From contig CAVZMI010000032.1 in assembly GCA_963776275.1 (NCBI GenBank), positions 56,359 to 120,358 of the forward strand: a stretch of DNA of 64,000 nucleotides. The letters are read 5' to 3'. The position numbers were made by a program, and so were the translations under genes. Origin of the DNA: Ignavibacteriota bacterium. GTDB lineage: Bacteria > Bacteroidota > Ignavibacteria > UBA10030 > CAVZMI01. Below the pieces are notes generated by a model, which did not search any database, was not told the origin of the DNA, and worked only from the letters and a program-made list of their open reading frames with translations. Of the stretch, positions 20,033-39,736 are shown in pieces (positions within the stretch are counted from its first letter, which is position 1; each line of letters begins with the position of its first letter).

Positions 20033-20224
20033 AAGAGAAATATACGCGTACAAAGACCGAAGTGCAACCTTACTCCTGATGATGTGTTTGAAATCACACT
20101 CAACCTTGCCACCATTTTTTATCAGCCAGTTTCCCGAGTCCCTTTCTGCCCACAGGACGGGAAGAGAAACATACTATGGAACAAAGATATATCGTTATAC
20201 AATTTTTAACCGGTTGTCTCGAGT

Positions 20225-20470
20225 GGCTGTTTTTACAGCCTTCGATCATTCACAATTCCGCCTTCACTTCCGCCTTCGTTCCAAAAAACGGAACTTCGGC
20301 GGACAAGTCGTTCCGGCGCCTGCCTGCTCGCCTCGCTTCGCTCGGCGAAGCGGGCCGGAGTGCCCGCCTTCAATGAAGCCTTCGGCAGGCGAAGGCCTCC
20401 GGCACGCAGGCCCGCCTTAGTCCGGAGGACGTCGGCGGGCAGGCAGGGACAGGTCGCAAATCACAATTCA
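20225..20470. repeat. Scaffold repeat with multiply nested hairpin mini-elements
   Basis: Same scaffold as 20654-20710 and 39635-39720; nested CCGCC..GGCGGACA(A/G)G and CCTGCC..GGCAGGCAGG units. Confidence 0.75.
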
Positions 20471-20504: not shown

Positions 20505-20726
20505 AACAATTCTTCATTCACCGTGGTTTGACTCGCTCACCATACTAAAGTACTGCTCACACCACTTACCTTCGACCCCTCGATGAACTCGGGGCAAGCA
20601 AGCTTTGGATTCCGTGGTGCTCGCTGCAGGCTCGAGCCAAGACTCGGCAACCTGGCTGTTTATATAACCTTCGATCATTCACAATTCAAGAATCACAATT
20701 CACAATTTATTTGTAGCCTCGACTCG
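20505..20726. repeat. Dispersed ~220-bp intergenic repeat, copy A (empty TCACAATTC site)
   Basis: Collinear with 39515-39736, e.g. CCAAG.CTC.GCAACCTGGCT.TTTATA...TCACAATTTATT...GCCTCGACTCG. Confidence 0.75.
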
Positions 20727-21894: not shown

Positions 21895-22003
21895 GTACTC
21901 CTCCATATGTAGTTTAGTTATAGTAGATTGCATGTGATAATTTCTTATATCTGCTCACGCACATAATCTACTACCTTTTTACGGCAAAGCCAACTCGACA
22001 TAA

Positions 22004-22022
22004 CCACCGCCAAAGGCAGTGG
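22004..22022. repeat. IS200/IS605- or REP-like hairpin remnant
   Basis: CCACCGCC-AAA-GGCAGTGG; resembles IS605-type subterminal hairpins; no transposase nearby. Confidence 0.35.
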
Positions 22023-22073
22023 ACTTCTGCTTCACACTAAAATAAAGTGGGTCGGTTTTGTTGTGAATTTACC

Positions 22074-22102
22074 TTGACTTTAAATGTGGAATATAATAAC
22101 AT
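22074..22102 (+). promoter_or_regulatory. Candidate sigma70 promoter upstream of the first attI (Pc-like)
   Basis: TTGACT-N17-TAACAT. Confidence 0.4.
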
Positions 22103-22118
22103 GTCAACATCCTACAAC

Positions 22119-22176
22119 TATGTTTCCCAAAGCCGTGTTTGGAATATTGGGTGGAGCAATATAGTTATCGTTAGCC
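22119..22176 (+). mobile_element. attI-like site, copy 1
   Basis: TATGTTTCCCAAAGCCGTGTTTGGAATATTGGGTGGAGCAATATAGTTATCG|TTAGCC; similarity between copies ends at the GTTAGCC core. Confidence 0.7.
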
Positions 22177-22199
22177 ACTATAATTATTAAAGTTAAAAT

Positions 22200-23093
22200 A
22201 TGATTAATAGCATTTTAAAAGTATTAAAAAATATTCTAAAATTTTATTTTGATATTTGTTTAATAATTATGTCGGTTATTATTATATCAATCATTTTTAC
22301 CCATCTCTTTCACTCTTTATTATCTACGGGTAAATATCTAAAATCCATCTTCATAATATGGATAATTCTTTTACCGATTTTAATAATTTTATATTATCTT
22401 ATTACAAAATCTAAAAATTTTGATACGTTGGGTTTTAGAATTCTAAAATTAAATAATAATAAGAAATACGCCATTAGAAATTTTTTCGTTATTACTGCTT
22501 TCACAATATCATTGATATTTCTATTCCAATTATATTATGTAAATGTCTATTTCGTACCTGTAATGTGTTCAGCAAAACCAAATTTATTTGAAGGTGATTA
22601 TTTAATGGTCGATAGGTTTTGGGTAAGAAATAATTCTCCTTCTCGTGGTGAAGTAATTGGATTTAAAACTCAAAAAATGAATTTTGATCTTGTCAAAAGA
22701 TGTGTAGCTTTTGGTGGAGATACAATAGAAATAAAGCAAGGAATTGTATTAATCAACAACGAACCAGAAGGCAAACTGATATATTTGAAAAATGCATATG
22801 ATTTCGTTGAACAGGAAGAATTGGAATATTATAAGATAATCAAAAAAAATGGTTTTGAGCATCTAGTTTGTTATCGACCAAATGGTTATTTTCGCAAGGA
22901 ACATTTTGGTCCAATCGTTATCCCGGAAAATCATTATTTTCTTTTAGGGGATAATAGAGATAATAGTGGTGATAGTAGGTATTATGGCTCTTTTCCTAAA
23001 AATGAAATGTTTTGTAAAGCAGGATTTGTATATTTTTCAATTGACCCAATAACTAAAAAAATACGATGGTCAAGAATTGGGATAACAATTTAA
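22200..23093 (+). CDS. Signal peptidase I-like protein in an integron cassette (AT-rich)
   Basis: KPNLFEGDYLMVDR, LVKRCVAFGGDTI and LLGDNRDNSGDSRYYG motifs. Cassette bounded by GTTAGCCACTA (22170) and TAGGCGGCTAAC (23117). Confidence 0.85.
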   Translation: MINSILKVLKNILKFYFDICLIIMSVIIISIIFTHLFHSLLSTGKYLKSIFIIWIILLPILIILYYLITKSKNFDTLGFRILKLNNNKKYAIRNFFVITAFTISLIFLFQLYYVNVYFVPVMCSAKPNLFEGDYLMVDRFWVRNNSPSRGEVIGFKTQKMNFDLVKRCVAFGGDTIEIKQGIVLINNEPEGKLIYLKNAYDFVEQEELEYYKIIKKNGFEHLVCYRPNGYFRKEHFGPIVIPENHYFLLGDNRDNSGDSRYYGSFPKNEMFCKAGFVYFSIDPITKKIRWSRIGITI

Positions 23094-23250
23094 GTAATTA
23101 TAAAATAGGCGGCTAACAAAAGTATTGATTTTTTGTGTCGGCGGGTAAGCGTGGTACATTAAGCATGGCTGGCAGAGATCTCGTGAAAACTGTAAAGCAA
23201 TCTACCATATTTCGATAGATATAGTTAAAATGATTTTTAATTTCGGGTGT

Positions 23251-23317
23251 CTTATGTGTTTCCCAAAGCCATGTTTGGAATATTAGGTGGATCGATATAA
23301 ATTAATTATTGTTAGCC
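23251..23317 (+). mobile_element. attI-like site, copy 2
   Basis: TGTTTCCCAAAGCCATGTTTGGAATATTAGGTGGATCGATATAAATTAATTATTG|TTAGCC (5 nt longer than copies 1 and 3). Confidence 0.7.
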
Positions 23318-23320
23318 GTC

Positions 23321-24046
23321 ATGTCAACTACACATAGTCCCGTAGAATGCGGGGATTGCGGGAGCGCAATCGATGTGAGCGCAGACCCTCCTGAGGGACG
23401 AGCCCCTTGCCCGAAATGCGGAAGCAAGAAACGCGCATACTATGCCACAATGGCAAATGCACAACCAACAGACTACATGCTTGACCACTTCGTCGCGCAC
23501 AAGCTTTCGCAACTCACTGAGTGCGGGGCGGCTGAACTGCCTGAGAAATCGTCTTGGTTGAATGCCTTCATTCTCAATAACCTCTTCATGGTCAACTTCC
23601 CCCTGAAGACACGCGCGTACCTGTTCAACTTCCTCAGGCGTGCTGAAGGAGCACTTTCGGGCTATCGCGAGGCGCGTCTCGCGCTGATTAACTACGTCAA
23701 TACACCACGCAGCACCATCTACCCATATTTCAAGGCACTCTCGCTATTCGAGATCTGTGTCTCGCAGTGCTACCAGGGATACGAGCTCCTCGCTACTGCA
23801 TCTGGTGAGAGGTTCTTCGAGCAGGGCGATGGAAGCGCCGCAGAACGGCTTCAAAAGCTCTATGTAGATTCCAAGCACATGGATTGCATGATTGATGGCG
23901 AAAAAGTACCATTAGAAGCAACAGTTCCCCTATGGATCACTAATTCTGGACTTGAGAGCGGTAGGGCCGCGCTCTCATTTCTGGAACTGGAAGAGATACT
24001 GCTCAACATGTACACATTAGCGGAAAAGGTTTCTATGCTTGACTAG
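23321..24046 (+). CDS. Hypothetical cassette protein with N-terminal CxxC...CxxC zinc ribbon
   Basis: ATG 10 nt after the core G at 23311; CGDCG and CPKCGS motifs. Confidence 0.7.
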   Translation: MSTTHSPVECGDCGSAIDVSADPPEGRAPCPKCGSKKRAYYATMANAQPTDYMLDHFVAHKLSQLTECGAAELPEKSSWLNAFILNNLFMVNFPLKTRAYLFNFLRRAEGALSGYREARLALINYVNTPRSTIYPYFKALSLFEICVSQCYQGYELLATASGERFFEQGDGSAAERLQKLYVDSKHMDCMIDGEKVPLEATVPLWITNSGLESGRAALSFLELEEILLNMYTLAEKVSMLD

Positions 24047-24052
24047 TACGCA

Positions 24053-24160
24053 GATCAAATGCGTGAGGTAATTCGATCACGCCATTACAGCTACAAGAGT
24101 GAAGAAGCCCATGTTCTCAACCTTGGCCCGGCCGGTGTCCGCAATCGAATCGATACCCTT
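24053..24160 (+). pseudogene. intI: Integron integrase remnant: N-terminus fused in frame to extreme C-terminus
   Basis: Translates DQMREVIRSRHYSYKSEEA|HVLNLGPAGVRNRIDTL. This matches the IntI N-terminus (DQxRxxIRxxHYSxxTExAY) and C-terminus (THVLxxGxxGVRSPLD). Confidence 0.8.
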
Positions 24161-24217
24161 ATGTTTCCCAAAAACGTGTTTGGAATATTATGTGGATCAA
24201 TATAATTACCGTTAGCC
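24158..24217 (+). mobile_element. attI-like site, copy 3 (immediately 3' of intI remnant)
   Basis: CTTATGTTTCCCAAAAACGTGTTTGGAATATTATGTGGATCAATATAATTACCG|TTAGCCC. Confidence 0.75.
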
Positions 24218-24242
24218 CGTTTGTCGCTATAACAAATCGGAG

Positions 24243-24437
24243 ATGCCCAATATGAGCATGCAATCAGTTAAAAAAAGCAAATGGCTATACCCTCTCCTTT
24301 ATGTTGCCTTTTTCATTATCAGTATGTTACCGCCTTATACAGAAAAGCCATATGCTCCACAAGATACACAGAATGTGATTTGTTGTTATTTCTGTATATG
24401 CCTTCATATTACCGCGAATATACAAGAAGCGGGCTAA
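24243..24437 (+). pseudogene. Short, probably deleted cassette ORF (membrane-protein N-terminus)
   Basis: 64-aa ORF whose stop lies in the inverse core GGCTAAC; cassette ends are complementary (GTTAGCCCG / CGGGCTAAC). Confidence 0.5.
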
Positions 24438-24501
24438 CATTCGGCTCGACAGCGCATGAAAAAGCGTTCCGCTTTTTCATCGAGTCAGGCTTTTGTTAAG
24501 C
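24432..24501 (+). mobile_element. attC site (70 bp)
   Basis: R'' GGCTAAC, L'' GCTCGAC, perfect ATGAAAAAGCG-TTC-CGCTTTTTCAT stem, L' GTCAGGC, R' GTTAAGC. Confidence 0.85.
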
Positions 24502-24541
24502 GCTCGCACATTAGGTTCGACCCATTAGAAGAGGACATACA

Positions 24542-25174
24542 ATGCGAAAAATCGAAATAGCGACAATAGGTGTTTTATTTGGTGCAGTACCCATCATCAT
24601 TTGTTTTCTCGCAGGGTGGTGGATCAGCATCCCTCTTGTTCCTGAATCATGGATATTCCTATGCGCTCTAACGGGTTTTCTTGTTGGAGTACTTGTCGAT
24701 GTTCTTTTTCTAAAAACGTGGGTTCGACATGCCTATTCGATGAAACCTATAGTCTGGATGATGATTTATCTGTTCTATTCCATTGGGATGTTCGGTTTCT
24801 TCATGGGAGTTCCGGTTTTCAATGTAGCGCTTGCCTTGCCTGCTGGTTTTTTCATCGGGGGATGGCTGGTTCATAGCGGTGCAGATTCCACACGCATGAA
24901 GAAGGTAGCGCGACATTGCGCTATATTCACTACAAGTGTCCTAGCACTTATTTGCATCGCATCAGCCGCAATTGCTCTGGCCAGTTCCTCCACAGCTTCC
25001 GATCTTCAAAAAATGTTCGGTCTTTCAGTTCAGGTTACACCCGCGATGATCATTGGCATCATCTTGGGCGGAGGCATCTTCATCCTTATTCTTCAATGGT
25101 GGCTCACATTCAAGTCTGTAGAGCGAGCGTATAGATATTTTTTTGCACGTGTCAGTCCGTCAACGTTCACATGA
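24542..25174 (+). CDS. Hypothetical integral membrane cassette protein
   Basis: Multi-TM, GFFMGVPVFN motif; cassette bounded by GTTAAGCGCTC (24495) and GAGCGCTAAC (25203-25212). Confidence 0.75.
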   Translation: MRKIEIATIGVLFGAVPIIICFLAGWWISIPLVPESWIFLCALTGFLVGVLVDVLFLKTWVRHAYSMKPIVWMMIYLFYSIGMFGFFMGVPVFNVALALPAGFFIGGWLVHSGADSTRMKKVARHCAIFTTSVLALICIASAAIALASSSTASDLQKMFGLSVQVTPAMIIGIILGGGIFILILQWWLTFKSVERAYRYFFARVSPSTFT

Positions 25175-25230
25175 AGTATATCATAGTTTGTATATAGTTA
25201 CCGAGCGCTAACCAGCGGCTCCTCGGTAAA

Positions 25231-25305
25231 TCCCACTGGACCCCACAATCCCACATAAAACGTGGGACGAGTACAACACGAGAATGTGGGACGTAGTGCA
25301 ACATT
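25231..25305. repeat. Nested CCCAC..GTGGG hairpin mini-elements interrupting an attC
   Basis: CCCCACAA[TCCCACATAAAACGTGGGACGAGTACAACACGA]GAATGTGGGACGTAGTGCAACA just after R''/L'' of an attC. Confidence 0.6.
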
Positions 25306-25333
25306 GCATGACAATTAATCGGAGATTAAAGGG

Positions 25334-25792
25334 ATGGAAATTAGAGATGCCATATTTAATGATCTTCCTTCAATATTAAAGCTACAAAAGTTGTGTTATC
25401 GGGAAAATGCGGAACGATATAACGACTATCAAATACCACCAATGATTCAGACAATTAATGATTTAGAAGATGAATTTAATTATAATGTAATATTAAAAGC
25501 TGAAGATCAATCTAAAATAATTGGCAGTCTAAGAGCATATGAAAAAAATGGTATTTGTTACATCGGGAGAGTTATTGTTCATCCCGACTACCAAAACAAA
25601 GGAATTGGAACAAAATTGATGATAGAGATTGAAAGAAGATTCCCCAATGTTTCAAAATATGAATTATTTACTGGATATAAAGACGAAAAAAATATTTACT
25701 TCTATGGTAAATTGGGCTATAAGATTTTTAAGGAAGAAAACCTTGGCTATAAGATAAAACTTGTTTTCCTGGAAAAAATAAGAATAGGATGA
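25334..25792 (+). CDS. GNAT family N-acetyltransferase
   Basis: VHPDYQNKGIGTKL and NIYFYGKLGY motifs. Confidence 0.9.
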   Translation: MEIRDAIFNDLPSILKLQKLCYRENAERYNDYQIPPMIQTINDLEDEFNYNVILKAEDQSKIIGSLRAYEKNGICYIGRVIVHPDYQNKGIGTKLMIEIERRFPNVSKYELFTGYKDEKNIYFYGKLGYKIFKEENLGYKIKLVFLEKIRIG

Positions 25793-25796
25793 AATC

Positions 25797-26384
25797 ATGA
25801 AACAGATTGTCACAAAGGAAGCCCTCAAGGATTTGTCGTCTGATAATCCGAGAATAAAATACAAACGGGTCAAAAATCTCCTGACGATTGCCGGGAAGAA
25901 CCCGGAACAACTCTACCCACATCTCCCCTTCTTTGTCAAACTTCTCAAGAGCGAGAACAACATTTTAAAGTGGATGGCAATCGACATCATTGGATCTCTA
26001 TCCAGGGTCGATACGGCGAAGAGAATCGATGGATTGCTGACGACTCTCTTTGGATTCCTTCGAGCCGGGAAAATGATTACTGCGAACCATGCAATCGCCG
26101 CCCTGTCTGCCATCGCTTCAGCTAAACCATATTATCAGAAGAAAGTGACACAGGAGCTTTTAAAAGTCGAGCAATATACGTACGACACAGATGAGTGTCA
26201 TAATATAGCCCTCGGGAAAGTCATTGTGGAAATAAATTCGTATTTTAAAGAACTGAAGCAGAATGATCAGGTCGTGGAATTCGTCAGCAGGCAGATAAAT
26301 AATTCGCGTGCCGCAACAAGGAAAAAAGCTGAGAATTTCTTAAAAATTCATAAAAACCAACCAACGAAGGAGAATAAACAATGA
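25797..26384 (+). CDS. Hypothetical HEAT/ARM-repeat-like protein
   Basis: Helical protein; PEQLYPHLPFFVKLLKSENNILKW pattern. Confidence 0.55.
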   Translation: MKQIVTKEALKDLSSDNPRIKYKRVKNLLTIAGKNPEQLYPHLPFFVKLLKSENNILKWMAIDIIGSLSRVDTAKRIDGLLTTLFGFLRAGKMITANHAIAALSAIASAKPYYQKKVTQELLKVEQYTYDTDECHNIALGKVIVEINSYFKELKQNDQVVEFVSRQINNSRAATRKKAENFLKIHKNQPTKENKQ

Positions 26385-26765
26385 AATCGATTAAATTGGT
26401 TTTCCTCTACGGATTTCTCATCTGGCTAATACCCTTCATCGTATCGTTCATTATATTCCCGATTCATGAGAATGACCGTACGCTGTTCGAATCTATCATG
26501 CCTGTCGTATTGACTATTAGTACAGTTCTGTTTTCAATTCTTTATTTAAAAAAGGTCGAAACTAAATTTTTAAAAGAGGGCATTCTCCTCGGCGTTATCT
26601 GGTTTCTGATAAGCTTCATTATCGACCAGTTTTTGTTCAGCGCAGGTCCCCATGAAAATGAGTTTTATCGACTATATAAAAGATATCGGACTTACTTATT
26701 TGATCATTCCCACCGTCACAATCGGATCCGGTTATCTCCTTGTAATTAGACAGAAACCTCAATAA
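26381..26765 (+). CDS. Four-TM membrane protein, +1 frameshift at ~26650
   Basis: WLIPF and FESIMPV motifs. Removing one C from GGTCCCC gives GPMKMSFIDYIKDIGLTYLIIP...* at 26765. Confidence 0.7.
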
Positions 26766-26774
26766 AATTATATA

Positions 26775-27299
26775 ATGCAGATTGAAAAATTACTATCCGG
26801 CGGCGATCTGCGTTCGATCGGGAAAAGCAATTCTGTTGTTTTGAAAATAAAAAATCAAAACGACTTTGACGAACTTTTTCAATGCTTGTTTCATAAAGAC
26901 AGAATTGTTGTAATGCGCGCGGCCGATGCAATTGAAAAAATAACAATAAAGGATCCTCTGTATCTGGCAAGGCATAAGAAAAAAATACTGGAATTGTGCA
27001 ACACCGCTGACGATAAAGAACTTCAATGGCATCTCGCTCTCATGATTCCAAGGCTGCATCTGACCTATAAAGAACTTGCAAGAATGTGGAATTTACTATC
27101 ACGCTGGGCATCGGATAATAGGGAGAGCAGGATTATGCAGGTGAATTCGATTCAGGGTCTTTTTGAATTATCAAGAGTCCACACTAAATTGATCACCGAC
27201 TTCAATATGATTCTTTCCAACATTGAACGGCAAAATATACCCTCCATCGCGGCAAGAATAAGAAAATTGAAGAAGTCGTTCGGTCGAATCAATCCATGA
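26775..27299 (+). CDS. Hypothetical HEAT-repeat-like protein
   Basis: GGDLRSIG, VMRAADAIEKIT and ELQWHLA motifs. Confidence 0.6.
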   Translation: MQIEKLLSGGDLRSIGKSNSVVLKIKNQNDFDELFQCLFHKDRIVVMRAADAIEKITIKDPLYLARHKKKILELCNTADDKELQWHLALMIPRLHLTYKELARMWNLLSRWASDNRESRIMQVNSIQGLFELSRVHTKLITDFNMILSNIERQNIPSIAARIRKLKKSFGRINP

Positions 27300-27454
27300 C
27301 ATCTTCCGTATAATCGATATGGCATGCGACGATCAAATATCGTATATTATTGAAAATAATCTTCAATAATAGAAAAGTAATTTTCCCCTTTGCGCTTTTA
27401 CTTTTTCCTAAATAACGTCATTATACCATTGTCTCACAGTCGGAACATATCGGA

Positions 27455-28597
27455 ATGAAACGATTCATACTTTTAATCTTGCTATTTGTTGCTGTTGGCA
27501 GCACTTCATGTAAGGAAGACACAGCCGGTTCCGATGAGAACCAGCCACCGGCAAATTACAACTCGGCACTTGCAACGCTTCTCGATTCGCTCAGGAATGT
27601 ATATAATCTTCCCGCCCTCGCCGGTGCCATTGTAACAGATACGGGTGTGATCGATGCGCAGGCAGTCGGCTGCAGACGATACGCCGGGCCGGCAAATGTA
27701 ACTGTAAACGACCAATTCCACCTCGGTTCGAATACCAAAGCCATCACTGCAGTCCTCTTGGGAATTCTTGTCGACAGCACTCTTCTCGGCTGGGATTCGA
27801 CATTGCCGTCGATATTTCCAGAGTATGCAGAAACAATGCGAACTGAATACCGCTCTGTCACAGTACGCGATATCCTTTCTCACAGCGCAGGATTCATCCG
27901 TGATCCATCCCTGACGCTTACTACACAAACACTAAGGGATCAGCGTGCGGAAGTCGTCGCTTGGGCTCTTAAACAACCCCCCGCAAACGTGCGCGGACAA
28001 TATCTCTACAGTAATCTCGGGTACATTATTGCCGGAGCTATCGCGGAAAAGTTGACGAATCGTCCGTACGAGGATCTTCTCATGGAACGGGTTCTCCAGC
28101 CTCTCGGAATAACCACGGCTGGTTTCGGCCCCATGGGAACGGTCGGACTCGAAGATCAACCGCTTCAGCATACACCTCAGTACATACCTCTTCAACCCGA
28201 AGCGGCCGCAGATAACCCTCCAATATATAATTCTGCGGGGAGGCTTCATATGTCGGTTGGTGACTGGGGCCGGTACATACAATGGGTACTGGCATGTGAG
28301 GCTGGACATCCCACGCTGCTTCGTCCTGAAACCGCACACACTCTGACTACGGGGGTAGTACCGATGCCCGGAGAGGGTTCGTATGCATTCGGGTGGGTAA
28401 TTGTCGACCGGCAGTGGGCCGGCGGGCGCACACTCACACATACAGGGAGCAATGGGCTGAACTTCGCGGTCGCATGGCTCGCCCCGAATCGAAGATTCGC
28501 GGTCCTTGCTGAAACGAATATCTGCACCAGCACGACACCCGGCTCGATGGACGCCGTCGTCGGCCGGATGATTATGTTCCATTTGAACGGACACTAG
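27455..28597 (+). CDS. Serine hydrolase (beta-lactamase class C/PBP-like fold) lipoprotein
   Basis: Lipobox STSC; SNTK, YSNLGY and HTGSNG motifs. Confidence 0.85.
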   Translation: MKRFILLILLFVAVGSTSCKEDTAGSDENQPPANYNSALATLLDSLRNVYNLPALAGAIVTDTGVIDAQAVGCRRYAGPANVTVNDQFHLGSNTKAITAVLLGILVDSTLLGWDSTLPSIFPEYAETMRTEYRSVTVRDILSHSAGFIRDPSLTLTTQTLRDQRAEVVAWALKQPPANVRGQYLYSNLGYIIAGAIAEKLTNRPYEDLLMERVLQPLGITTAGFGPMGTVGLEDQPLQHTPQYIPLQPEAAADNPPIYNSAGRLHMSVGDWGRYIQWVLACEAGHPTLLRPETAHTLTTGVVPMPGEGSYAFGWVIVDRQWAGGRTLTHTGSNGLNFAVAWLAPNRRFAVLAETNICTSTTPGSMDAVVGRMIMFHLNGH

Positions 28598-28603
28598 GAC
28601 ACG

Positions 28604-29410
28604 ATGAGCAGCGAAAACTTTTCAACGATAGCCCAACGATATAGAGAGACTTCGATAATCCAGAAGTCTGCAGCAGAAACATTATTTTCATTACTGGATC
28701 TCAAGGATGGTGAAAGTGTTTTGGATATCGGCTGCGGAACCGGAAACCTGACAAAAAAGATTTTCGATATCACTCATGGAAGAACCGTCGGCATCGATCC
28801 TTCAAAAGGTATGATCGATGAATCGATAAAATCTTACGGTAATATCATGGAATTCCGGATGATGAGGGCAGAGGATCTTGACTTTAAAAATGAATTTGAT
28901 GCGGTCTTCTGCAATTCTACCTTTCAATGGATTCGGGATGTCGATAAAGTCACAGCCAATTTCTATCGCGCACTCAAAAAGGAAGGACGTATAGGAATTC
29001 AGGCTCCGGGGAGAAGGCAATATTGTCCGAATTTCATCGCGGCTGTTTCAGAAGTACTTAAAAATCCCGGCACAAGAGAGTATTTTCGGAATTTTAAACA
29101 TCCCTGGTTTTTTCGCGATACCGCCGACGAGTACTCACAATACTTCCTCAGACAGGGATTTCACATTGCTTTGAGTGAAATACAAACAATGGAAACATAC
29201 CACAGTCCTGAAGAGATATATGAGATATTTGCATCGGGTGCGATTGCAGGATACCTGAATAAAGAGTATTACCCGGATGGATTCGACGAGTCATATAAAA
29301 AAGAATTTGAACGAATCGTGAAAGACTCATTCTATAAGCAGGCCGGCAGTGATGGAAAGGTAAAATTAGTATTTAATAGAATATTTTTAATCGCCGAAAA
29401 AACTGCATGA
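28604..29410 (+). CDS. Class I SAM-dependent methyltransferase (Tam/BioC-like)
   Basis: VLDIGCGTG and FDAVFCNSTFQW motifs. Confidence 0.85.
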   Translation: MSSENFSTIAQRYRETSIIQKSAAETLFSLLDLKDGESVLDIGCGTGNLTKKIFDITHGRTVGIDPSKGMIDESIKSYGNIMEFRMMRAEDLDFKNEFDAVFCNSTFQWIRDVDKVTANFYRALKKEGRIGIQAPGRRQYCPNFIAAVSEVLKNPGTREYFRNFKHPWFFRDTADEYSQYFLRQGFHIALSEIQTMETYHSPEEIYEIFASGAIAGYLNKEYYPDGFDESYKKEFERIVKDSFYKQAGSDGKVKLVFNRIFLIAEKTA

Positions 29411-29490
29411 AAAGAATATTTGTCGCTATAGTTATATCTGCACTATCCGTTGAAAAATAACATAATACATTTTATCAACAGGATGGCAAA

Positions 29491-30645
29491 ATGAAACTAT
29501 CGAAAGCCATGATAGAACTATTCATCGTCGTTTCGCTACTTATCACAGCCGCTGCATTATGCTTTGGACAGCAAAAGAATATCAATTCTTCCGGCTTCGA
29601 AATTCACAGAGGCGTCAACCTGAGCCATTGGCTGTCGCAATGTTTAGGGTGGTCGCCCAGGGAGACTTTTATCACAGAGAAGGATATACAATTTATCGAC
29701 AGCATGGGCTACGACCATGTGCGAATACCTATCGATGAAACCGAGATGTGGACAAGCGACGGAAAGCCGATAGAAGAATCATTCACATATCTCACCCGCT
29801 GCCTCGACTGGTGCGCGAAACACAATTTAAGGGCTATTGTCGATCTTCATATCCTGAAATCGCATAATTTCAACGCCGATAATGAAGGCGGGGAAAATAT
29901 ATTATGGACAGACTCTTCAGCACAGCACAATTTCATCAAACTCTGGAATGACATTTCGGATTACCTGAAAAATTATCCTGTCAACATGGTTGCCTATGAG
30001 CTTATGAACGAGGCGGTTGCGCCTAACCATGAAGACTGGAACAGGTTGATTGCCAAAGCTGTAAAGGTGATCCGCATACTTGAACCCAATCGTGTTCTTA
30101 TCATCGGATCGAATAGATGGCAAAGACCCGAATTTTTCCCGCAGTTAAAAGTGCCTGAGAATGATAAAAATATTATCCTCAGTCTGCACACATATTCGCC
30201 AATTCATTTTACACACAATCGGGCCGACTGGACATCCTTCAAATTATACACCGGGCCTGCACACTATCCCGGCCAGGTTGTTGCCGACGCCGATTATAAA
30301 AAATATGTCGACACAAATAATTTAGCTCTTGTGCATGGAATGGACGGATCGGTCCAGGTATTCGATAAAAAGAGGCTTACAGAAGAACTGCTGCCTGCTG
30401 TACAGAAAGCCAAGGAACTCAATCTTCAGCTTTACTGCGGTGAATTTGGATGCCTTCCTCATGTCGACAGAACTGAAAGGTTGAAATACTACAACGATAT
30501 CGTCTCGGCATTCGAAGAGAACAATATCGCCTGGTGCAACTGGGAATATAAAGGCGACTTTGGAATATATTCTTTTGACTTTGAGAAAAAAGTCTCCCTC
30601 TCACCCGATTTCGGATTGATCAACATTCTGATGCAAAAGAAATAA
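29491..30645 (+). CDS. GH5 glycoside hydrolase (cellulase family), secreted
   Basis: RGVNLSHWLSQ, YELMNE (acid/base) and GEFG (nucleophile) motifs. Confidence 0.9.
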   Translation: MKLSKAMIELFIVVSLLITAAALCFGQQKNINSSGFEIHRGVNLSHWLSQCLGWSPRETFITEKDIQFIDSMGYDHVRIPIDETEMWTSDGKPIEESFTYLTRCLDWCAKHNLRAIVDLHILKSHNFNADNEGGENILWTDSSAQHNFIKLWNDISDYLKNYPVNMVAYELMNEAVAPNHEDWNRLIAKAVKVIRILEPNRVLIIGSNRWQRPEFFPQLKVPENDKNIILSLHTYSPIHFTHNRADWTSFKLYTGPAHYPGQVVADADYKKYVDTNNLALVHGMDGSVQVFDKKRLTEELLPAVQKAKELNLQLYCGEFGCLPHVDRTERLKYYNDIVSAFEENNIAWCNWEYKGDFGIYSFDFEKKVSLSPDFGLINILMQKK

Positions 30646-30693
30646 TAAACTGCCCCACACCTCACCTGCCGGCTATAAATAGGAGAAAATCTG

Positions 30694-31101
30694 ATGAATG
30701 AAAATTTAAACTCTGCACAGGAAGATTACACGGGTGGTGGGCGGCAAGATCATGAACCTCCGGTCGTCATCGCTTCATATGGCTGGCGCTATCATCATCT
30801 CGGTATACCAACCGATATCCCCCGCCCCGGCGAGCGATTTCTTGAGCAATTCAAGATGTATGTGTCGGGTTTCGAAACAAGTCCTTACGGCATCGAATGG
30901 ATGCGATTCGAGCAGGATAGCCCTGTTTCTGAACTGATCAGAAATGTTCCCCACTTAGCCTTTGAAGTAGACGATCTCGATTTTGCAATAAAGGGTAAAT
31001 ATATACTAACTGAAGCAACCTCTCTCTCCAATGGCATAAGGGTTGCCATGATCATCCATGACGGCGCCCCTATCGAACTCCTTGAATTTCGAAAGGGCTG
31101 A
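30694..31101 (+). CDS. VOC/glyoxalase-like protein
   Basis: YHHLGIPT, PHLAFEVDDL and GAPIELLE motifs. Confidence 0.7.
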   Translation: MNENLNSAQEDYTGGGRQDHEPPVVIASYGWRYHHLGIPTDIPRPGERFLEQFKMYVSGFETSPYGIEWMRFEQDSPVSELIRNVPHLAFEVDDLDFAIKGKYILTEATSLSNGIRVAMIIHDGAPIELLEFRKG

Positions 31102-31223
31102 CAATCATTGCTTTTACACACAAGAATAATTAATTTTTATAGATCGGGACGTTTGAAAAACTCTGTTTATATATTTTCTATGGACACACTTGAGCCGGCG
31201 GTCTGAAACAACCTGTATTTTCT

Positions 31224-31492
31224 GAATTGCCACGAGCTCGGGCTTTTACGCCCCACGCTTTCGTGCTTTTCACGTCCCACGATCTTTGTGGGACCAGTGG
31301 GGTTAACTCGTGGGAAATAAGAGGAGAAAAATGAGGGGTTTTAACCCCACATTAAATTGATGTAGGGCTAAAGCCCGCAAAGATTTTTTAGATTTAAAAA
31401 TCCACGACCTGACCCCACTGGAAAGCGTGGGGCGTAAATCCCACAGGAAACGTGGGACGGAAAAAACCCGAAGCACGAGGTCGTGGCCATTC
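31224..31492. repeat. REP/REPIN-like inverted composite with mini-element insertions in both outer hairpin loops
   Basis: Ends GAATTGCCACGA / TCGTGGCCATTC; inner GGGGTTTTAACCCC and GGGCTAAAGCCC palindromes; CCACGACCTGA|AGGTCGTGG split by an insert. Confidence 0.7.
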
Positions 31493-31570
31493 ATTCGGCA
31501 TTAATTTTTCTCCGACCGGATATGTTATTCAGAGGTCTCAGCATTTAAAAGCCATGGAGAGATTCAATCA

Positions 31571-31948
31571 TTGGCTAAGGCACTTACAATAAGGGAAGTA
31601 CCTTGCAACGGCTGCACGCTCTGCTGCCAGGGTGATGCCATCAAGCTTGAAGAAGAAGACCGGGCGCTGGATTATAAGACGGAATCCCATCCGTACATCC
31701 CAGGAGCCCTCATGATTGCACATAAACCGAACGGTGAATGTTTCTACTTAAATGAACAAGGCTGCAGCATCCACAGCTGGGCGCCTTCATTGTGCCGTAG
31801 CGCTGATTGCCGCAGTCTCGCCATTAAATTGAATTATGATGCAGTACGTTCACTCCATATGATGGGCAGGCTGGATTTCCGGGTATGGCTGCAGGGACGC
31901 AGACTTATCGAGGCAATGACCGCTCATGGCGGAAAGGATAATCAGTAA
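31571..31948 (+). CDS. YkgJ-family cysteine cluster protein
   Basis: CxxCxxCC...ECFYL...CSIH..AP..CRxxxC pattern. Confidence 0.8.
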   Translation: MAKALTIREVPCNGCTLCCQGDAIKLEEEDRALDYKTESHPYIPGALMIAHKPNGECFYLNEQGCSIHSWAPSLCRSADCRSLAIKLNYDAVRSLHMMGRLDFRVWLQGRRLIEAMTAHGGKDNQ

Positions 31949-31954
31949 AATAAA

Positions 31955-32671
31955 ATGCTTAAAATCAGCGATATTGCCAAGATGATCGACCATTCAATTC
32001 TTCATCCTACATTTACAGATGATGATTTAAAGAAGAACTGTGATATAGCAAAAAAATATCATGTTGCCACAGTATGTGTCAAGCCCTATCATACTCGGAT
32101 GGCGGCTGAATTACTTAAAGGCTCCGATGTGGGGGTATGTGCAGTAATCGGTTTCCCGCATGGAAACAGTTCGACTGATATTAAAAATGCAGAAACACTT
32201 CAGGTAATTAACGACGGCGCAACAGAAGTGGATATGGTGGTGAATATCGGAAAAGTAATGCAGGGTGACTGGTCATATATCGACAACGAACTTAAAACAA
32301 TTAATGATACCTGCCGTAAAAACAGGGCACTGTTAAAAGTCATTTTTGAGACGGACTTCGTATCGCGCGACAAGGATAAAATAAGACTATGCGAACTTTG
32401 CAACAAACATGATATTGCTTTTGTGAAGACATCGACCGGTTACGGATTTGTCAGGAATAACAATGGAAAATATTCGTATGCCGGAGCGACCGAACACGAT
32501 GTAAAGCTTATGCGTAAACATTGCGCTCCCGGAGTAAAGATAAAAGCTGCCGGTGGTGTACGGACACTTGATCAATTATTGAAATATCGCGAGCTGGGTG
32601 TGACTCGAATAGGTGCCTCGGCAACGGAAGCTATTATGGAAGAAGCGAAAAAACGTTTCGAATCGAAATAG
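31955..32671 (+). CDS. deoC: Deoxyribose-phosphate aldolase
   Basis: IDHSILHP, VIGFPHG, EVDMV, FVKTSTG and KAAGGVRT motifs. Confidence 0.95.
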   Translation: MLKISDIAKMIDHSILHPTFTDDDLKKNCDIAKKYHVATVCVKPYHTRMAAELLKGSDVGVCAVIGFPHGNSSTDIKNAETLQVINDGATEVDMVVNIGKVMQGDWSYIDNELKTINDTCRKNRALLKVIFETDFVSRDKDKIRLCELCNKHDIAFVKTSTGYGFVRNNNGKYSYAGATEHDVKLMRKHCAPGVKIKAAGGVRTLDQLLKYRELGVTRIGASATEAIMEEAKKRFESK

Positions 32672-32681
32672 AGGTTGTTCA

Positions 32682-33125
32682 GTGAATATCGAAATTATCG
32701 AAGCAAAAAAAGAAGATTTGCCCTCAATCTTAAAGCTCTATGCCGTTGAAGACATTGATAACGGCGATATCCTATCAATCGGAAAAGCAGAAGTAATATT
32801 TAATAGAATGCAATCGTATCCGAACTATAAAATCTATATTGCAAAATATAATGGGAAAACGGTGGGCACATTTTCACTCTCGATAATGGATAACATAGCA
32901 CATCTCGGTAAATCTTCCGGTCTGGTTGAAGATGTGGTGGTTGATAAAACCATGAGATCAAAAGGAATTGGGAAGATAATGATGGAATATGCCATGAAAA
33001 TATGTAAAGAAAGTAACTGCTATAAAATGAGTCTATCCAGTAATTTGAAAAGAGAAAGAGCACATAGTTTTTACGAGAAATTAGGATTTGAAAAACATGG
33101 GTTCAGTTTTTTAATTAAAATATGA
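32682..33125 (+). CDS. GNAT family N-acetyltransferase
   Basis: VEDVVVD...RSKGIG and AHSFYEKLGF motifs; GTG start after GAGG. Confidence 0.85.
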   Translation: MNIEIIEAKKEDLPSILKLYAVEDIDNGDILSIGKAEVIFNRMQSYPNYKIYIAKYNGKTVGTFSLSIMDNIAHLGKSSGLVEDVVVDKTMRSKGIGKIMMEYAMKICKESNCYKMSLSSNLKRERAHSFYEKLGFEKHGFSFLIKI

Positions 33126-33231
33126 TTTCGCAGGGCGAGAAGAACTTCCGAAAATAATCAGCTGTTCTCAAAGCCCGCATAACGGTTGCAGAATATTTTT
33201 GTATGATCATAAATGATATAATAGATTTTTA

Positions 33232-34038
33232 ATGAATACCGATTATGTCCATGGATATACAGAGCGAGAGTCGATCAGATTGGAAGATCAAGCCAATTGC
33301 CTGAGCGAGCTTCTCCACCACGATTCTATTTTTCCTAAAGGCTCGATAATACTCGAGGCCGGCTGCGGAACCGGAGCTCAGACAAAGATCATTGCCCCCA
33401 AAAATCCTGACTCAAAATTCATATCAATTGATATTTCCGAAGATTCATTGCGTAAAGCCGATTCTCTCATAAAATCACTTAATATCAATAATGTCGAGTT
33501 TCAAACCGGCAACATTTTTAATCTGAAATTTGAAGAAGAATCCTTTGACCATGTTTTCGTTTGTTTTGTACTTGAACATCTTCCCAATCCTGTCGGAGCG
33601 TTACGAGCATTAAAAAAAGTATTGAAAAAAGGGGGATCCATTACGGTCATTGAAGGAGATCACGGCTCTGCCTATTTTTATCCTTACAGCCGGTATGCGC
33701 AAGAAGCGATTGATGCACTGGTAAAATTGCAGTCGACAAACGGCGGAAACGCCTCAATAGGCAGAGAACTTTACCCGCTTTTAAGCATCTCGAATTTTAA
33801 AAACTGCAAGGTTTCTCCCAGAATGGTTTATGTCGATTCGAGTAGACCTGAACTTGTTGAGGGCTTTACAAAAAATACTTTTACGGCTATGATTGAAGGA
33901 ATAAGAAATAAAGCTGTCAATAGTTGTCTCATCGATAAAAGCTCCATTGAAAAAGGTATTCAGGATTTGTATCGAACGACTCAGATTGACGGTGTTTTTT
34001 GTTACACATTTTTCAAGGGAATTGGGTATAATATTTAA
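33232..34038 (+). CDS. Class I SAM-dependent methyltransferase
   Basis: LEAGCGTG and FDHVFVCFVLEH motifs. Confidence 0.85.
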   Translation: MNTDYVHGYTERESIRLEDQANCLSELLHHDSIFPKGSIILEAGCGTGAQTKIIAPKNPDSKFISIDISEDSLRKADSLIKSLNINNVEFQTGNIFNLKFEEESFDHVFVCFVLEHLPNPVGALRALKKVLKKGGSITVIEGDHGSAYFYPYSRYAQEAIDALVKLQSTNGGNASIGRELYPLLSISNFKNCKVSPRMVYVDSSRPELVEGFTKNTFTAMIEGIRNKAVNSCLIDKSSIEKGIQDLYRTTQIDGVFCYTFFKGIGYNI

Positions 34039-34089
34039 AAAAGCAGTCGATGCAAGGAACAAATCCCTCGGGAGAATAATAAAAGAAAA

Positions 34090-35853
34090 ATGAAATCATC
34101 GTTGGCATTATTGAGTTTGCTTTCACTGCTTGCCTGTTCGATTAATCCGCATGTCTGTGCACAGAACGATATACAAAAGACTTACTGTGATAAAGCGTAT
34201 AAAGAATATCATTATGGTGTACCGTTTTTGCATCTGGAAGGGACCGATTATGAAGTAGGTTACCAGTACGGTTATCTCCTTAAAGATGAGTTACATGCCG
34301 TGTACGAGGGATTCAACGATTTCAAAGAAAACATGATGGAAAGGGAAATAAAATACCTGCCCTGGTATCAAAGATTTTTCGCTAATCTGTTTGGCTCGTT
34401 AATTTTAAAACACAAAATAAACAAATATGTCGATCAACTTCCGGATGATATCCATAATCAATTGAAAGGCATGGCTGACGGTGCTGATATGCCGGTCAGA
34501 TTTTTTTATGAAGTCAATCTCTTCGGCGATTATTTATCTCACGGATGTTCTTCATTCGTCATAAAGAAAGGAAGCATAATCTATCACGCCCGCAACCTCG
34601 ATACGCCGCTCAATCTGATCGCCAGATATCCTGTCATTGTGTGTTACAGCATTAACGGACGACAAAAATATACAGATATAGGATTTATTTCCGGATTGAT
34701 GATTTCCACCGGCTTCAACGAATCAGGAATTTCTTTTTCAGAAGATTCAAATAATAATCCGATGGCTTTCGATAAGAATAATTCGAACCTGCTGGTTGAA
34801 CGAAACAGAATTATAACCCGGGCTCACAATCTAAAAGAGGCCGATTCATTAGTCAATGCGTTACTTATTCCCGAGGGATATATTTTTACACTCTCGGACA
34901 GTGAAGAAAAACAGGCAAATGTCTACGATGTAATCGGAAAAATAAAAGCTGCCACTCCGGTAGACGGTTATCAATATGTGGCAAACAGAACAATATCGCA
35001 CGTCCTGGGTAAAAAAAGCGAATCGATTTATGCTGGTAATTTCCATGATATCTCAAGGGAAATAAAATTTTCAGAATTAATCGATACAACTAAGACAAAT
35101 ATCGTCGACGAGGCAATAGATATCTTAAGTAACATCCATTTCTATCATTACACCGACTCGATAGAAGTGTGGATCGATGCAATCAATAATTATCAAACGA
35201 TTCAATCGGCAATTTTTGATCTGGCCGATTCGGCCGTGTATTTCGCATACAATACACACTATGCTGCATGGAGCAGATGGTTGAAGTATAACTATATTAC
35301 AGGTGAGGTTGGTGTCTATAGAGAAGCCGATGACAAATTGAACCGAGCGGATATCTTGAAATTTGTCGATATCTGTAAAGAGTACCAGGCAGCAGACTGG
35401 CGCGACAGCACGATGGTCGATTCACTGGTTCGCCACATCATCGATTCACAAATTGAAAATTACTTTTGCCTTGATGTATTATGTCAGCAATATCTATATC
35501 GTTTTAAAGCACCGGATATAACAATCGCTCATGCCGACAAAATGATCAAGAAATATCCAGATGTAGTCACGGGTTATTATTACAAAGGTCTCGCTCTCGA
35601 AGAACAGAAACAATACGGCAATGCAATCACTCAATATATGAAAGCATTCAATTGTACTATATGCTGTGAATATTACCTTGCCGGTGTCTGCGAACATCTC
35701 GCTTATTCGAATAATTTTCTGGGAAACAAAGAAATTGCCAAAGAATATGCAGTAAAAGCATTGGCAATCCATAATCAGTATTGGATTCCGGATCATTTGA
35801 AAGAAAAGATTGAGAAGCTTGAAAAGATTGCGGCTATAGATTCAAAACGCTAA
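34090..35853 (+). CDS. Peptidase C45 (Ntn-hydrolase, AAT-like) with C-terminal TPR
   Basis: LEGTDYEVGYQYG, G|CSSF nucleophile, HARNLD and GFNESGIS motifs; TPR-like tail. Confidence 0.8.
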   Translation: MKSSLALLSLLSLLACSINPHVCAQNDIQKTYCDKAYKEYHYGVPFLHLEGTDYEVGYQYGYLLKDELHAVYEGFNDFKENMMEREIKYLPWYQRFFANLFGSLILKHKINKYVDQLPDDIHNQLKGMADGADMPVRFFYEVNLFGDYLSHGCSSFVIKKGSIIYHARNLDTPLNLIARYPVIVCYSINGRQKYTDIGFISGLMISTGFNESGISFSEDSNNNPMAFDKNNSNLLVERNRIITRAHNLKEADSLVNALLIPEGYIFTLSDSEEKQANVYDVIGKIKAATPVDGYQYVANRTISHVLGKKSESIYAGNFHDISREIKFSELIDTTKTNIVDEAIDILSNIHFYHYTDSIEVWIDAINNYQTIQSAIFDLADSAVYFAYNTHYAAWSRWLKYNYITGEVGVYREADDKLNRADILKFVDICKEYQAADWRDSTMVDSLVRHIIDSQIENYFCLDVLCQQYLYRFKAPDITIAHADKMIKKYPDVVTGYYYKGLALEEQKQYGNAITQYMKAFNCTICCEYYLAGVCEHLAYSNNFLGNKEIAKEYAVKALAIHNQYWIPDHLKEKIEKLEKIAAIDSKR

Positions 35854-36031
35854 GCTCCTTCGATGAATTTTCCGCAAATTATACATCTCACAGTTACAAA
35901 TGCACGTGGAGTAAGCTGTCGGATGTACGGGTAGTTTTAGCACTGCAGAGCGAAGTTATATCCAAACATTCTGTCGGTCTCAGTATCGGCATCGACGATT
36001 TTCACACAAAGTGGAAATCACATTGTATTTT

Positions 36032-36520
36032 TTAGCGGCCTATTTCGATTATTTCATATTCGAGCATGCCGGCAGGAACCTGGATTTTAATAATCTCTCC
36101 CTTTGATTTTCCCATAAGGGCCTTTCCTATCGGCGAAGTAATTGAGAGCTTATTCTGCTCAAAATCCGCCTCTTCGGGGGAAACCATCCGGTATTCAAAT
36201 TCCTTTTTCGAGTTCTTGTCTTTCACTTTGACAACTGAGAGGATATATACTTTATCGGTTTGGAGGTCTTTACTATCGATGATCCGTGCACGGGAAAGTG
36301 TTTGTTCGAGTTTTGAGATACGCAATTCGAGATGCTGCTGTGCTTCTTTGGCTGCTTCATATTCGGCATTCTCGCTTAAATCGCCGTATCCGCGCGCGTC
36401 GGCAATCTTCTGCGCCATTTCAGCGCGTCCCTTAATTTTCAGCTCACGCAGCTGATTTTCGAGCTCCACCAGACGCTCCCGCGTCAGATAGACAATACCA
36501 TTGTTGGTATTGTCGGACAT
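36032..36520 (-). CDS. greA: Transcription elongation factor GreA
   Basis: GDLSENAEYEAAK and SPIGKALMGK motifs. Confidence 0.97.
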   Translation of the reverse strand: MSDNTNNGIVYLTRERLVELENQLRELKIKGRAEMAQKIADARGYGDLSENAEYEAAKEAQQHLELRISKLEQTLSRARIIDSKDLQTDKVYILSVVKVKDKNSKKEFEYRMVSPEEADFEQNKLSITSPIGKALMGKSKGEIIKIQVPAGMLEYEIIEIGR

Positions 36521-39514: not shown

Positions 39515-39736
39515 AGAAAATTATTCATTCGTGGTTCGACTCGTCCCAACATACAACGTTGGGACTCGCTCAGCGAAGCCGTACTTTAGTGCACCACAAG
39601 GTCTCGACTTACTCGACCCAAGGCTCTGCAACCTGGCTATTTATACAGCCTCCGATCAATCACAATTCCGCCTTCACTTCGTTTCGGCGGACAGGTCGTA
39701 ACTCAAAATTCACAATTTATTCGTTGCCTCGACTCG
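39515..39736. repeat. Dispersed intergenic repeat, copy B (single 29-nt insert at 39669-39697)
   Basis: Collinear with 20505-20726; extra CGCCTTCACTTCGTTTCGGCGGACAGGTC and a TCCCAAC..GTTGGGA hairpin. Confidence 0.75.

Follow-up and report, generated by a model that had tools for sequence, protein, structure and literature searches.

How can a reading frame of only 48 codons carry both ends of an integron integrase (IntI), and what does its position tell about the integron to which it belonged? This question is raised by positions 24047–24205 of the window, the 64,000-nucleotide stretch of DNA analyzed here, where a sequence-only reading had recognized a fusion of the N- and C-termini of IntI and had taken it for the scar of an integrase gene that once sat inside the cassette array, between two attI sites. 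Dead chromosomal integrons are common, and the attI sites of inverted integrons are poorly defined. In our view the locus is likely to be the decayed platform of a small inverted chromosomal integron, the intI gene of which would have been broken by two separate events: a deletion of its core and the insertion of a block of DNA.

The window belongs to a metagenome-type assembly (G000; 38 contigs, 5.3% contamination). It was compared with a sister species of the same genus (G001), with a genome of the same family (G002), and with a relative of the same order carrying an intact intI gene (G052, locus L012/L115). Twelve full-length IntI proteins, all encoded by genomes belonging to the order of the window, served as the reference set. 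Matches above the cut-off of the TIGR02249 profile (265 bits) were obtained in 21 of the 61 genomes of the order searched, G000 being counted among the 61.

The fused integrase remnant

Read in the frame of 24047, the window translates as YADQMREVIRSRHYSYKSEEA and then HVLNLGPAGVRNRIDTL, and on to a TAA codon ending at 24205; the ORF starting at the ATG at 24059 (48 aa) is present in the ORF list. At positions 24047–24160, about 21 codons from the N-terminus of IntI are joined in frame to 17 codons from its C-terminus. The N-terminal part, or piece B (24047–24109, + strand), corresponds to codons ~7–27 of the ancestral gene, as indicated by tblastn, by shuffling, and by its identity with G001; the C-terminal part, or piece C (24110–24160, + strand), corresponds to the last 17 codons and begins at the His residue following the catalytic Tyr, as indicated by tblastn and shuffling. 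When the 12 intact IntI proteins were used as tblastn queries against the whole window, residues 36–57 of the L012 protein were found to align with 24053–24118 (E 7.8e-4), and residues 332–348 of the same protein with 24110–24160 (E 0.016, 70.6% identity). These two matches are adjacent, collinear, and in one frame; the remaining matches in the window are weak, scattered noise. The Smith-Waterman score obtained with the best IntI was 65 in the case of the N half and 62 in that of the C half, vs. 28 and 24, respectively, with whichever of three other G000 tyrosine recombinases scored best, and the observed score was reached by none of the 1000 shuffles of either half. Both terminal motifs are nearer to IntI than to other tyrosine recombinases, as descent from IntI implies, and for both halves the nearest match is the integrase of G052 (L012). 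The proposals that this is an in-frame IntI fusion and that each half prefers IntI to other recombinases were therefore borne out by the translation, the alignments, and the shuffles.

The remnant is not a member protein of the family. At the curated cut-off it fails the membership of full-length IntI proteins and is a pseudogene fragment, from which the catalytic residues, including the Tyr nucleophile, and the extra domain specific to IntI are missing. The sole NCBIfam family obtained at E ≤ 10 was NF011946 ("integron integrase"), with a weak match (E 0.05, 12.8 bits vs. a cut-off of 435); no Pfam family was found for the remnant, and it does not figure among the TIGR02249 matches of G000. 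A search with the 38-aa peptide among 1.8 billion representative proteins yielded just the 48-aa ORF of the window itself and one repetitive artefact, and no longer relatives of the remnant were obtained in a word-indexed protein search with a 52-aa query. Since a peptide of 38 aa is too short to reach significance at the scale of 1.8 billion proteins, its identity rests on the targeted tests. Judging from these alignments, the remnant is genuine debris of an intI pseudogene.

The triplets fused in the remnant are 277 codons apart in all 12 intact relatives, in agreement with the loss of roughly 280 codons, including that of the Tyr, which had been estimated previously. As the catalytic Tyr sits two residues before the retained His, it is deleted in the remnant. 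The junction between pieces B and C falls between a GCC codon and a CAT codon (CATGTT). In the intact relatives, the corresponding triplets, Ala/Ser-Tyr-Val/Leu/Ile/Thr and Thr-His-Val, have 3–7 of 9 nt in common in the same codon phase (6/9 in L012 and 7/9 in L014). An internal loss of ~277 codons between the Ala-Tyr-Val and Thr-His-Val triplets would have joined B to C, and slippage or illegitimate recombination between such in-phase repeats would automatically give an in-frame fusion; the open frame therefore requires no selective explanation. The microhomology and the exact junctions are those suggested by relatives that are ~55–70% identical in these peptides. A deletion catalyzed by the integrase at G|TT secondary sites was also considered for this junction and seems to be disfavored, as the junction keeps CAT (His) and not TAT (Tyr).

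It might be asked whether the 48-aa ORF is a functional small protein, such as a DNA-binding or regulatory stump of IntI. The fact that it is in frame, begins with an ATG, and has been annotated as a gene in a public collection (P0001) speaks in favor of this idea, but it has no homolog among the 1.8 billion representatives, its counterpart in G001 contains an in-frame stop and lacks piece C, and its in-frame state follows from the in-phase microhomology. A function of this kind is thus extremely improbable; we regard the ORF as a by-product, for which there is no evidence of function.

The split gene and its attI-like repeats

G000 and G001 are collinear, with 94–95% identity, from 14001 to ~22002 and from 25312 to 35956. 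The sole interval that differs extends from 22115 to 25311 in the window and corresponds to 820 nt in G001. An ATG stands at the end of the conserved intergenic region in G001, and the homolog of piece B follows contiguously, eight codons later. The counterpart of this start in the window is piece A (22101–22118, + strand), an 18-nt stretch comprising the start codon and five further codons, in which 13 of 14 nt are identical to positions 1480–1493 of the G001 locus L025. Piece A adjoins the conserved chromosomal flank and directly precedes the first copy of an attI-like repeat (attI-1); piece B starts 1.93 kb further downstream, in the same phase as piece A (18 nt, by coordinate arithmetic). 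Just 5' of the integrase start lies a promoter-like site (22068–22100, + strand; TTTACC-18-TATAAT, 10/12), the best sigma-70-type match of the region, which is a match to the consensus only, as the promoter type of this organism may differ; this stretch still aligns with G001 (74% over 89 nt).

Since the start and piece B are contiguous in G001, whereas A and B are 1.93 kb apart in G000, attI-1, ORF1, attI-2, and ORF2 lie inside intI; a working integrase must once have had A and B contiguous, and the stretch 22119–24046 therefore lies within the gene. According to this comparison, intI survives in three pieces, A, B, and C. Piece B shows 82% identity over 39 nt with contig C5 of G001, and pieces A and B taken together show 74–82% identity between the two species, vs. 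94% for the flanks. We read this lower identity as neutral decay; different alleles could also account for it. The G001 copy of the gene is also dead, with a stop in its frame and its C-terminal piece missing. The deletion in G001 begins within ~3 nt of the G000 breakpoint and ends in the 3' half of attI, and the coincidence of the two left breakpoints seems to fit neither shared descent nor independence comfortably.

The intact intI of G002 was considered as a means of dating the events at this locus and was set aside, as it does not adjoin homologs of the genes flanking the window's integron. A metagenome scan for strain variants with the flanking secreted protein gave no syntenic locus among the 80 loci listed; these matched mainly the C-terminal sorting domain of the protein, with 33–53% identity, and one of them matched residues 141–358.

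The 58-nt repeat (family D1) is present in three copies in the window and nowhere else in G000. The first copy (attI-1, 22119–22176, + strand) ends in GTTAGCC, is identical to the third at 51 of 58 positions, and has sharp homology bounds on both sides. The second (attI-2, 23255–23318, + strand) contains a 5-nt insertion, likewise ends in GTTAGCC, and is identical to copies 1 and 3 at 52 and 51 of 64 positions, respectively. The third (attI-3, 24160–24217, + strand), which starts 905 nt after the start of attI-2, occupies the native position directly 3' of the integrase end, and its 3' half aligns with the stretch preceding GTTAGCC after the intI gene of G052 and with a locus on contig C7 of G001. 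The homology between the copies, which are mutually 80–88% identical, starts abruptly at TATGT and stops exactly at GTTAGCC, and a different ORF follows each copy. Based on its position, its core, and the conservation of its 3' half across the window copies, G052, and C7 of G001, we accept the repeat as attI-like.

Piece C abuts attI-3, and a canonical cassette comes next on the same strand, which is the order expected of an inverted platform. As had been proposed, the remnant is co-oriented with the downstream cassette and carries attI at its 3' end, an inverted layout that recurs in the intact integron of G052. Three further candidates in this region did not stand up: piece C and attI-3 showed no attC-like pairing on inspection by eye; a hexamer resembling TATAAT, with a short spacer, which was noticed by eye within the attI repeat, was not flagged as a promoter by the promoter scan; and matches to the attI-like DNA in G104 and G224 were attributed to chance, as neither site has an integrase or cassettes.

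These data suggest that a 1.93-kb block consisting of attI-1, a signal peptidase cassette, attI-2, and ORF2 landed between codons 6 and 7 of intI. Both junctions of the block carry TAC, which would be compatible with a ring having entered the gene by a single reciprocal crossover, or with a 3-bp duplication; no recognizable mobility gene or terminal repeats were found in the block. The attI copies of the block begin exactly at the left edge of attI, without any integrase debris, whereas three other loci keep 14–17 terminal codons of the integrase. Random insertion does not explain this precise start. In addition, the motif YATGT adjoins every novel junction (B|C, A|attI-1, the edge of attI-2, and that of a second integrase stump on contig C27 of G000). 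These unexplained features of the junctions could point to sequence-directed, perhaps integrase-mediated, events.

The sequence-only reading had gone further and proposed that the integrase lived in the array, so that the interval from attI-2 to attI-3 (ORF2, intI, and attI) could be excised as a self-mobilizing circle until it was frozen by the core deletion. The present geometry fits this proposal, the remnant being located between attI-2 and attI-3, and IntI1 recombines attI with attI and excises attI1-ORF-attI1 units efficiently, according to the experiments described in PMC12901181; moreover, if the block was inserted into an intact gene, the interval would briefly have contained an integrase that was complete except for its first codons and had an in-frame ATG at 24059. 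However, piece A and the promoter-like site are located outside the interval, 5' of attI-1, and are contiguous with piece B in G001. None of the relatives examined has two attI copies around intI, since G052 and G002 have one each, and no second unit of this kind came to light, whether in G000, in the 277 genomes searched from the order, or in the set of 1.8 billion representative proteins. The circle model is thus quite unlikely. The location of the start and its six codons, with the promoter-like region (22068–22118), upstream of attI-1 speaks against the idea of an integrase gene housed in the array with an attI site on either side: as far as the alignment with G001 can tell, the intact intI would never have lain wholly between attI-2 and attI-3. 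As for attI x attI excision, it is mechanistically plausible in the light of what PMC12901181 reports on IntI1, but there is no evidence here of its occurrence, and the self-mobilizing circle is unsupported.

It has also to be considered whether the integrase itself made the rearrangements, attI-bounded units, which once included a near-complete intI, moving as rings. A ring with two attI-ended units would then have entered the integrase gene, and the interval from attI-2 to attI-3 would temporarily have been excisable with ORF2, a 5'-trimmed and possibly working intI, and attI, the platform thus becoming a cassette. We hold this to be improbable. If it were true, YATGT at the junctions would mark accessory integrase sites and would not be chance microhomology.

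Another possibility is that three tandem integron platforms decayed separately, piece A stemming from the first and the B|C fusion from the third, and that no block was ever inserted. This would agree with the divergence of the three attI copies, which at 80–88% identity are no recent duplicates, with the presence of several platforms in the genus, and with the fact that the first 8 nt of ORF2 and of the integrase are identical. It would nevertheless require two independent deletions with coincident ends (the end of A falls within about one codon of the start of B) in the same phase, and no integrase debris was found 5' of attI-1 or attI-2; this scenario is therefore unlikely. As regards an assembly artefact, in which strain variants would have been joined or an intact intI collapsed, the fragmentation and contamination of the assembly mentioned above and the variability of cassette regions between strains would make it conceivable. 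It is, however, very unlikely: collinearity of the contig with G001 extends for kilobases to either side, repeats that are 80–88% identical give short exact runs and hence a poor substrate for repeat-induced misjoins, and the gene at this locus is dead in G001 as well, the assembly of which is independent.

The preferred reading thus combines a core deletion with the insertion of the block. Without an integrase in G000, the attI-ORF-attI layout would be frozen; in the presence of an active enzyme, rapid resolution of such a layout would be expected. We read the survival of this layout as a consequence of the loss of the integrase.

Cassettes of the locus and integron remains elsewhere

ORF1 (22200–23093, + strand) encodes an accessory signal peptidase I (Pfam Peptidase_S26, E 4e-30; TIGR02227, 109 bits vs. 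a cut-off of 47). It is a second signal peptidase: the housekeeping copy, which has a counterpart in G001, is located on contig C8. The GC content of ORF1 is 0.26, vs. 0.52 for ORF2 and 0.44 for the window as a whole, and by its composition ORF1 is foreign content. It is followed by a truncated attC site (23108–23186, + strand), which consists of the inverse core GGCTAAC and an internal module and has no 3' core. Positions 23137–23170 of this site match contigs C30 and C4 (90–91% over 31–34 nt), and the 34-nt module recurs inside the long attC-like repeats of the cassette arrays carried by these two contigs of the same genome. Since GGCTAAC and this recurring module follow ORF1, the latter is a genuine cassette with an attC lacking its 3' end. 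The predicted fold of 23100–23325 was no better than that of shuffled sequences (z −0.4). The region downstream of ORF1 was also considered together with attI-2 as one long attC (23110–23318) and rejected, as only the terminal cores pair (z −0.4); the complementarity of the cores across this interval is the family consensus anyway.

ORF2 (23321–24046, + strand; 241 aa, GC 52%) has an N-terminal CxxC...CxxC motif, and its stop codon abuts piece B of intI. No Pfam, NCBIfam, or PADLOC family was found for ORF2, and no relative was obtained when it was used as a query against 276 other genomes of the order. The claim that the remnant lies between two cassettes held only in part: the downstream unit has a canonical attC site, but no attC accompanies ORF2 upstream. 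The start of ORF2 (23321–23334) shares 8 nt with that of the integrase (22101–22108), namely ATGTCAAC, and the next, overlapping 9 nt of ORF2 (CAACTACAC) are found again directly behind the remnant of the attI core in G001 (L025, ~1577–1585). These coincidences hint that the start of ORF2 may have been borrowed from the platform, or may share its history, and that the history of the locus may have been more complex.

The canonical cassette downstream of attI-3 (24243–24501, + strand) is composed of ORF3 (64 aa) and a 70-nt attC site at 24432–24501, with an attC-type hairpin on the bottom strand. This hairpin (z −2.56; 2 of 200 shuffles were as good) was the top candidate in a scan for attC sites of up to 170 nt covering 21900–36100. 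The next unit (24542–25333, + strand) carries ORF4 (210 aa) and the 5' part of a long attC-like site common to G001, as identified in the alignment between G000 and G001: the two genomes differ upstream and match from the CTAACCAGCGG-type inverse core onward, the 94% collinearity resuming at 25312. Altogether, the locus contains one complete attC site (24432–24501) and two truncated ones (starting at 23108 and 25205). Most of what might pass for a + strand array beyond 25312 is fixed, shared DNA, since it is collinear with G001; it has little or no intergenic spacing and no recognizable short attC, except for a repeat-rich gap of 469 nt (31102–31570).

Short hairpins of the form CCCAC(n)GTGGGAC (family D9) recur at 25230–25300, fill the 469-nt intergenic region at 31102–31570, and are also present in the long attC repeats of C30; they may be the remains of long attC sites in DNA that is now fixed in both species. 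Another repeat, made up of 57 nt and 34 nt and ending in TCACAATTCACAATT (families D2 and D8), occurs at 20202–20258, 20631–20726, and 39612–39736 and also matches G001. As it adjoins the gene of a secreted protein and recurs 19 kb away, it may be a small dispersed element.

No intact intI was detected in G000 in the TIGR02249 profile search, and in this respect the array is frozen, as had been predicted. The best matches in this genome, both of them near-identical recombinases without the IntI-specific region, scored 137.6 and 135.3 bits for their best stretch, vs. the cut-off of 265, and do not cover model positions 181–234. Two near-identical tyrosine recombinases, at C22:9542–10312 and C23:235729–236553, are IntI-like at both ends and lack the specific middle domain; the C-terminus of the C22 copy is truncated just before the end of the region of the catalytic Tyr.

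The search for an intact intI and for further copies of the remnant, which had been suggested along with the fusion, was thus negative on the first count, and on the second it disclosed C-terminal stumps at two other loci. One of these is located in G000 (C27:28895–28950, − strand; locus L118, ~4896–4951) and consists of 17–18 codons up to the stop. It begins at the same His codon as the remnant in the window, and the differences between the two are mostly synonymous, so that the C27 and window genes worked separately before they were truncated. The gene preceding this stump is presumably a Mg-chelatase-like gene (ComM/YifB-type), and a 580-aa ORF comes after the stump. The other is located on C7 of G001 (locus L124, ~1495–1660) and has ~14 codons with an internal stop. 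It is followed by the attI-like stretch related to the repeat of the window and then by a cassette-like ORF of 166 aa; its neighbors are, by appearance, what we take to be the ribosomal protein L21/L27 genes. Integron platform decay is general in the genus, to judge from these stumps.

Cassette arrays without an integrase are present at the contig ends C4:1–4000 and C30:1–7000 of G000 (loci L129 and L130). Their composite attC sites look longer than 300 nt (one example measures ~330 nt by eye). These sites open with inverse cores of the GCCTAACCAGCGGCTCAAGCTGAC type and close with CCGTTAGGCGGC; a conserved module and a 58-nt hairpin module with a perfect stem lie inside them, and they are candidates for a structured attC family.

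In G052, GTTAGCC is reached ~175 nt after the intact intI; a cassette ORF comes next, with an attC that starts with GGCTAAC and ends with GTTAGGC, and then a second cassette with the same attC family. This integron has the GTTAGCC core in common with that of the window, and the sequences immediately preceding the core are related. It differs in having a full-length IntI (485.9 bits with TIGR02249), a single attI, and a canonical attC of ~165 nt, and in the distance between the stop codon and the core (~175 nt, vs. ~57 nt in the window). In G002, ~560 nt of 21-nt periodic repeats of the TGAAATGACT type are located just 5' of the intact integrase gene (L116:5517–6078), and two 22-nt direct repeats lie between the stop codon of the integrase and the end of the contig.

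Relation to known integrons and significance

The locus is of a known kind, an inverted chromosomal integron with an intI pseudogene; what is unusual is the triple-attI layout and the split gene. In the survey by IntegronFinder, intI pseudogenes were reported near 15 of 279 CALIN, for which the formal definition requires at least two attC sites (Cury et al., 2016; PMC4889954). As described there, CALIN and integrons with an inactivated intI resemble the window locus in that the integrase has been lost, cassettes and sites have been kept, and an intI pseudogene is adjoining. By comparison with that account, the remnant in the window is very small, at 38 codons, has kept its frame, and is interrupted by an insert, and it has one complete short attC beside it, so that the formal threshold of two attC sites given in PMC4889954 is not clearly reached at this locus. 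The order intI, attI, cassettes on one strand is that of the Treponema denticola type (PMC3607928), of which G052 provides an intact example with the same order. The Treponema integrons presented in PMC3607928 are active, have long arrays, and belong to a different lineage, whereas the integron in the window is dead and very short.

The closest parallel to the architecture is provided by the attI-type cassettes of PMC12901181 (delta-attI; attI1-ORF-attI1), in which an ORF is likewise bounded downstream by an attI-type site and not by an attC. Such an architecture is present twice in the window, as attI-2-ORF2-remnant-attI-3 and as ORF1 followed by attI-2, both of which are candidate substrates of excision. 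In keeping just the inverse-core end of its attC, ORF1 is also similar to the "truncated attC" class (Partridge et al., 2009, as quoted in PMC12901181). The attI-type cassettes treated in PMC12901181 come from class 1 and class 2 mobile integrons with a divergent intI, and most of them carry 11-nt attI stubs. Unlike those, the window carries three full-length 58-nt copies in a chromosomal inverted integron, with integrase debris in one unit, all known from sequence alone. IntI1 was reported to excise a complete attI1-ORF-attI1 unit at ~100%, which is the reason put forward by the authors for the rarity of such units (PMC12901181).

The comparison with G001 resolves the decay of an integron platform nearly to the base, as an in-frame core deletion plus the interruption of the gene by attI-bearing DNA, and at this locus complete attI-ORF-attI units occur naturally in a chromosomal integron of the inverted type. 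Near-immediate excision of such units would be predicted from the IntI1 experiments, as presented in PMC12901181, and their survival beside a dead integrase fits this prediction. This suggests that the loss of the integrase can fix intermediates that would otherwise be transient. Lastly, the final 15–17 codons of the integrase are retained beside attI at three loci, a feature that could guide the mapping of attI sites in inverted integrons.
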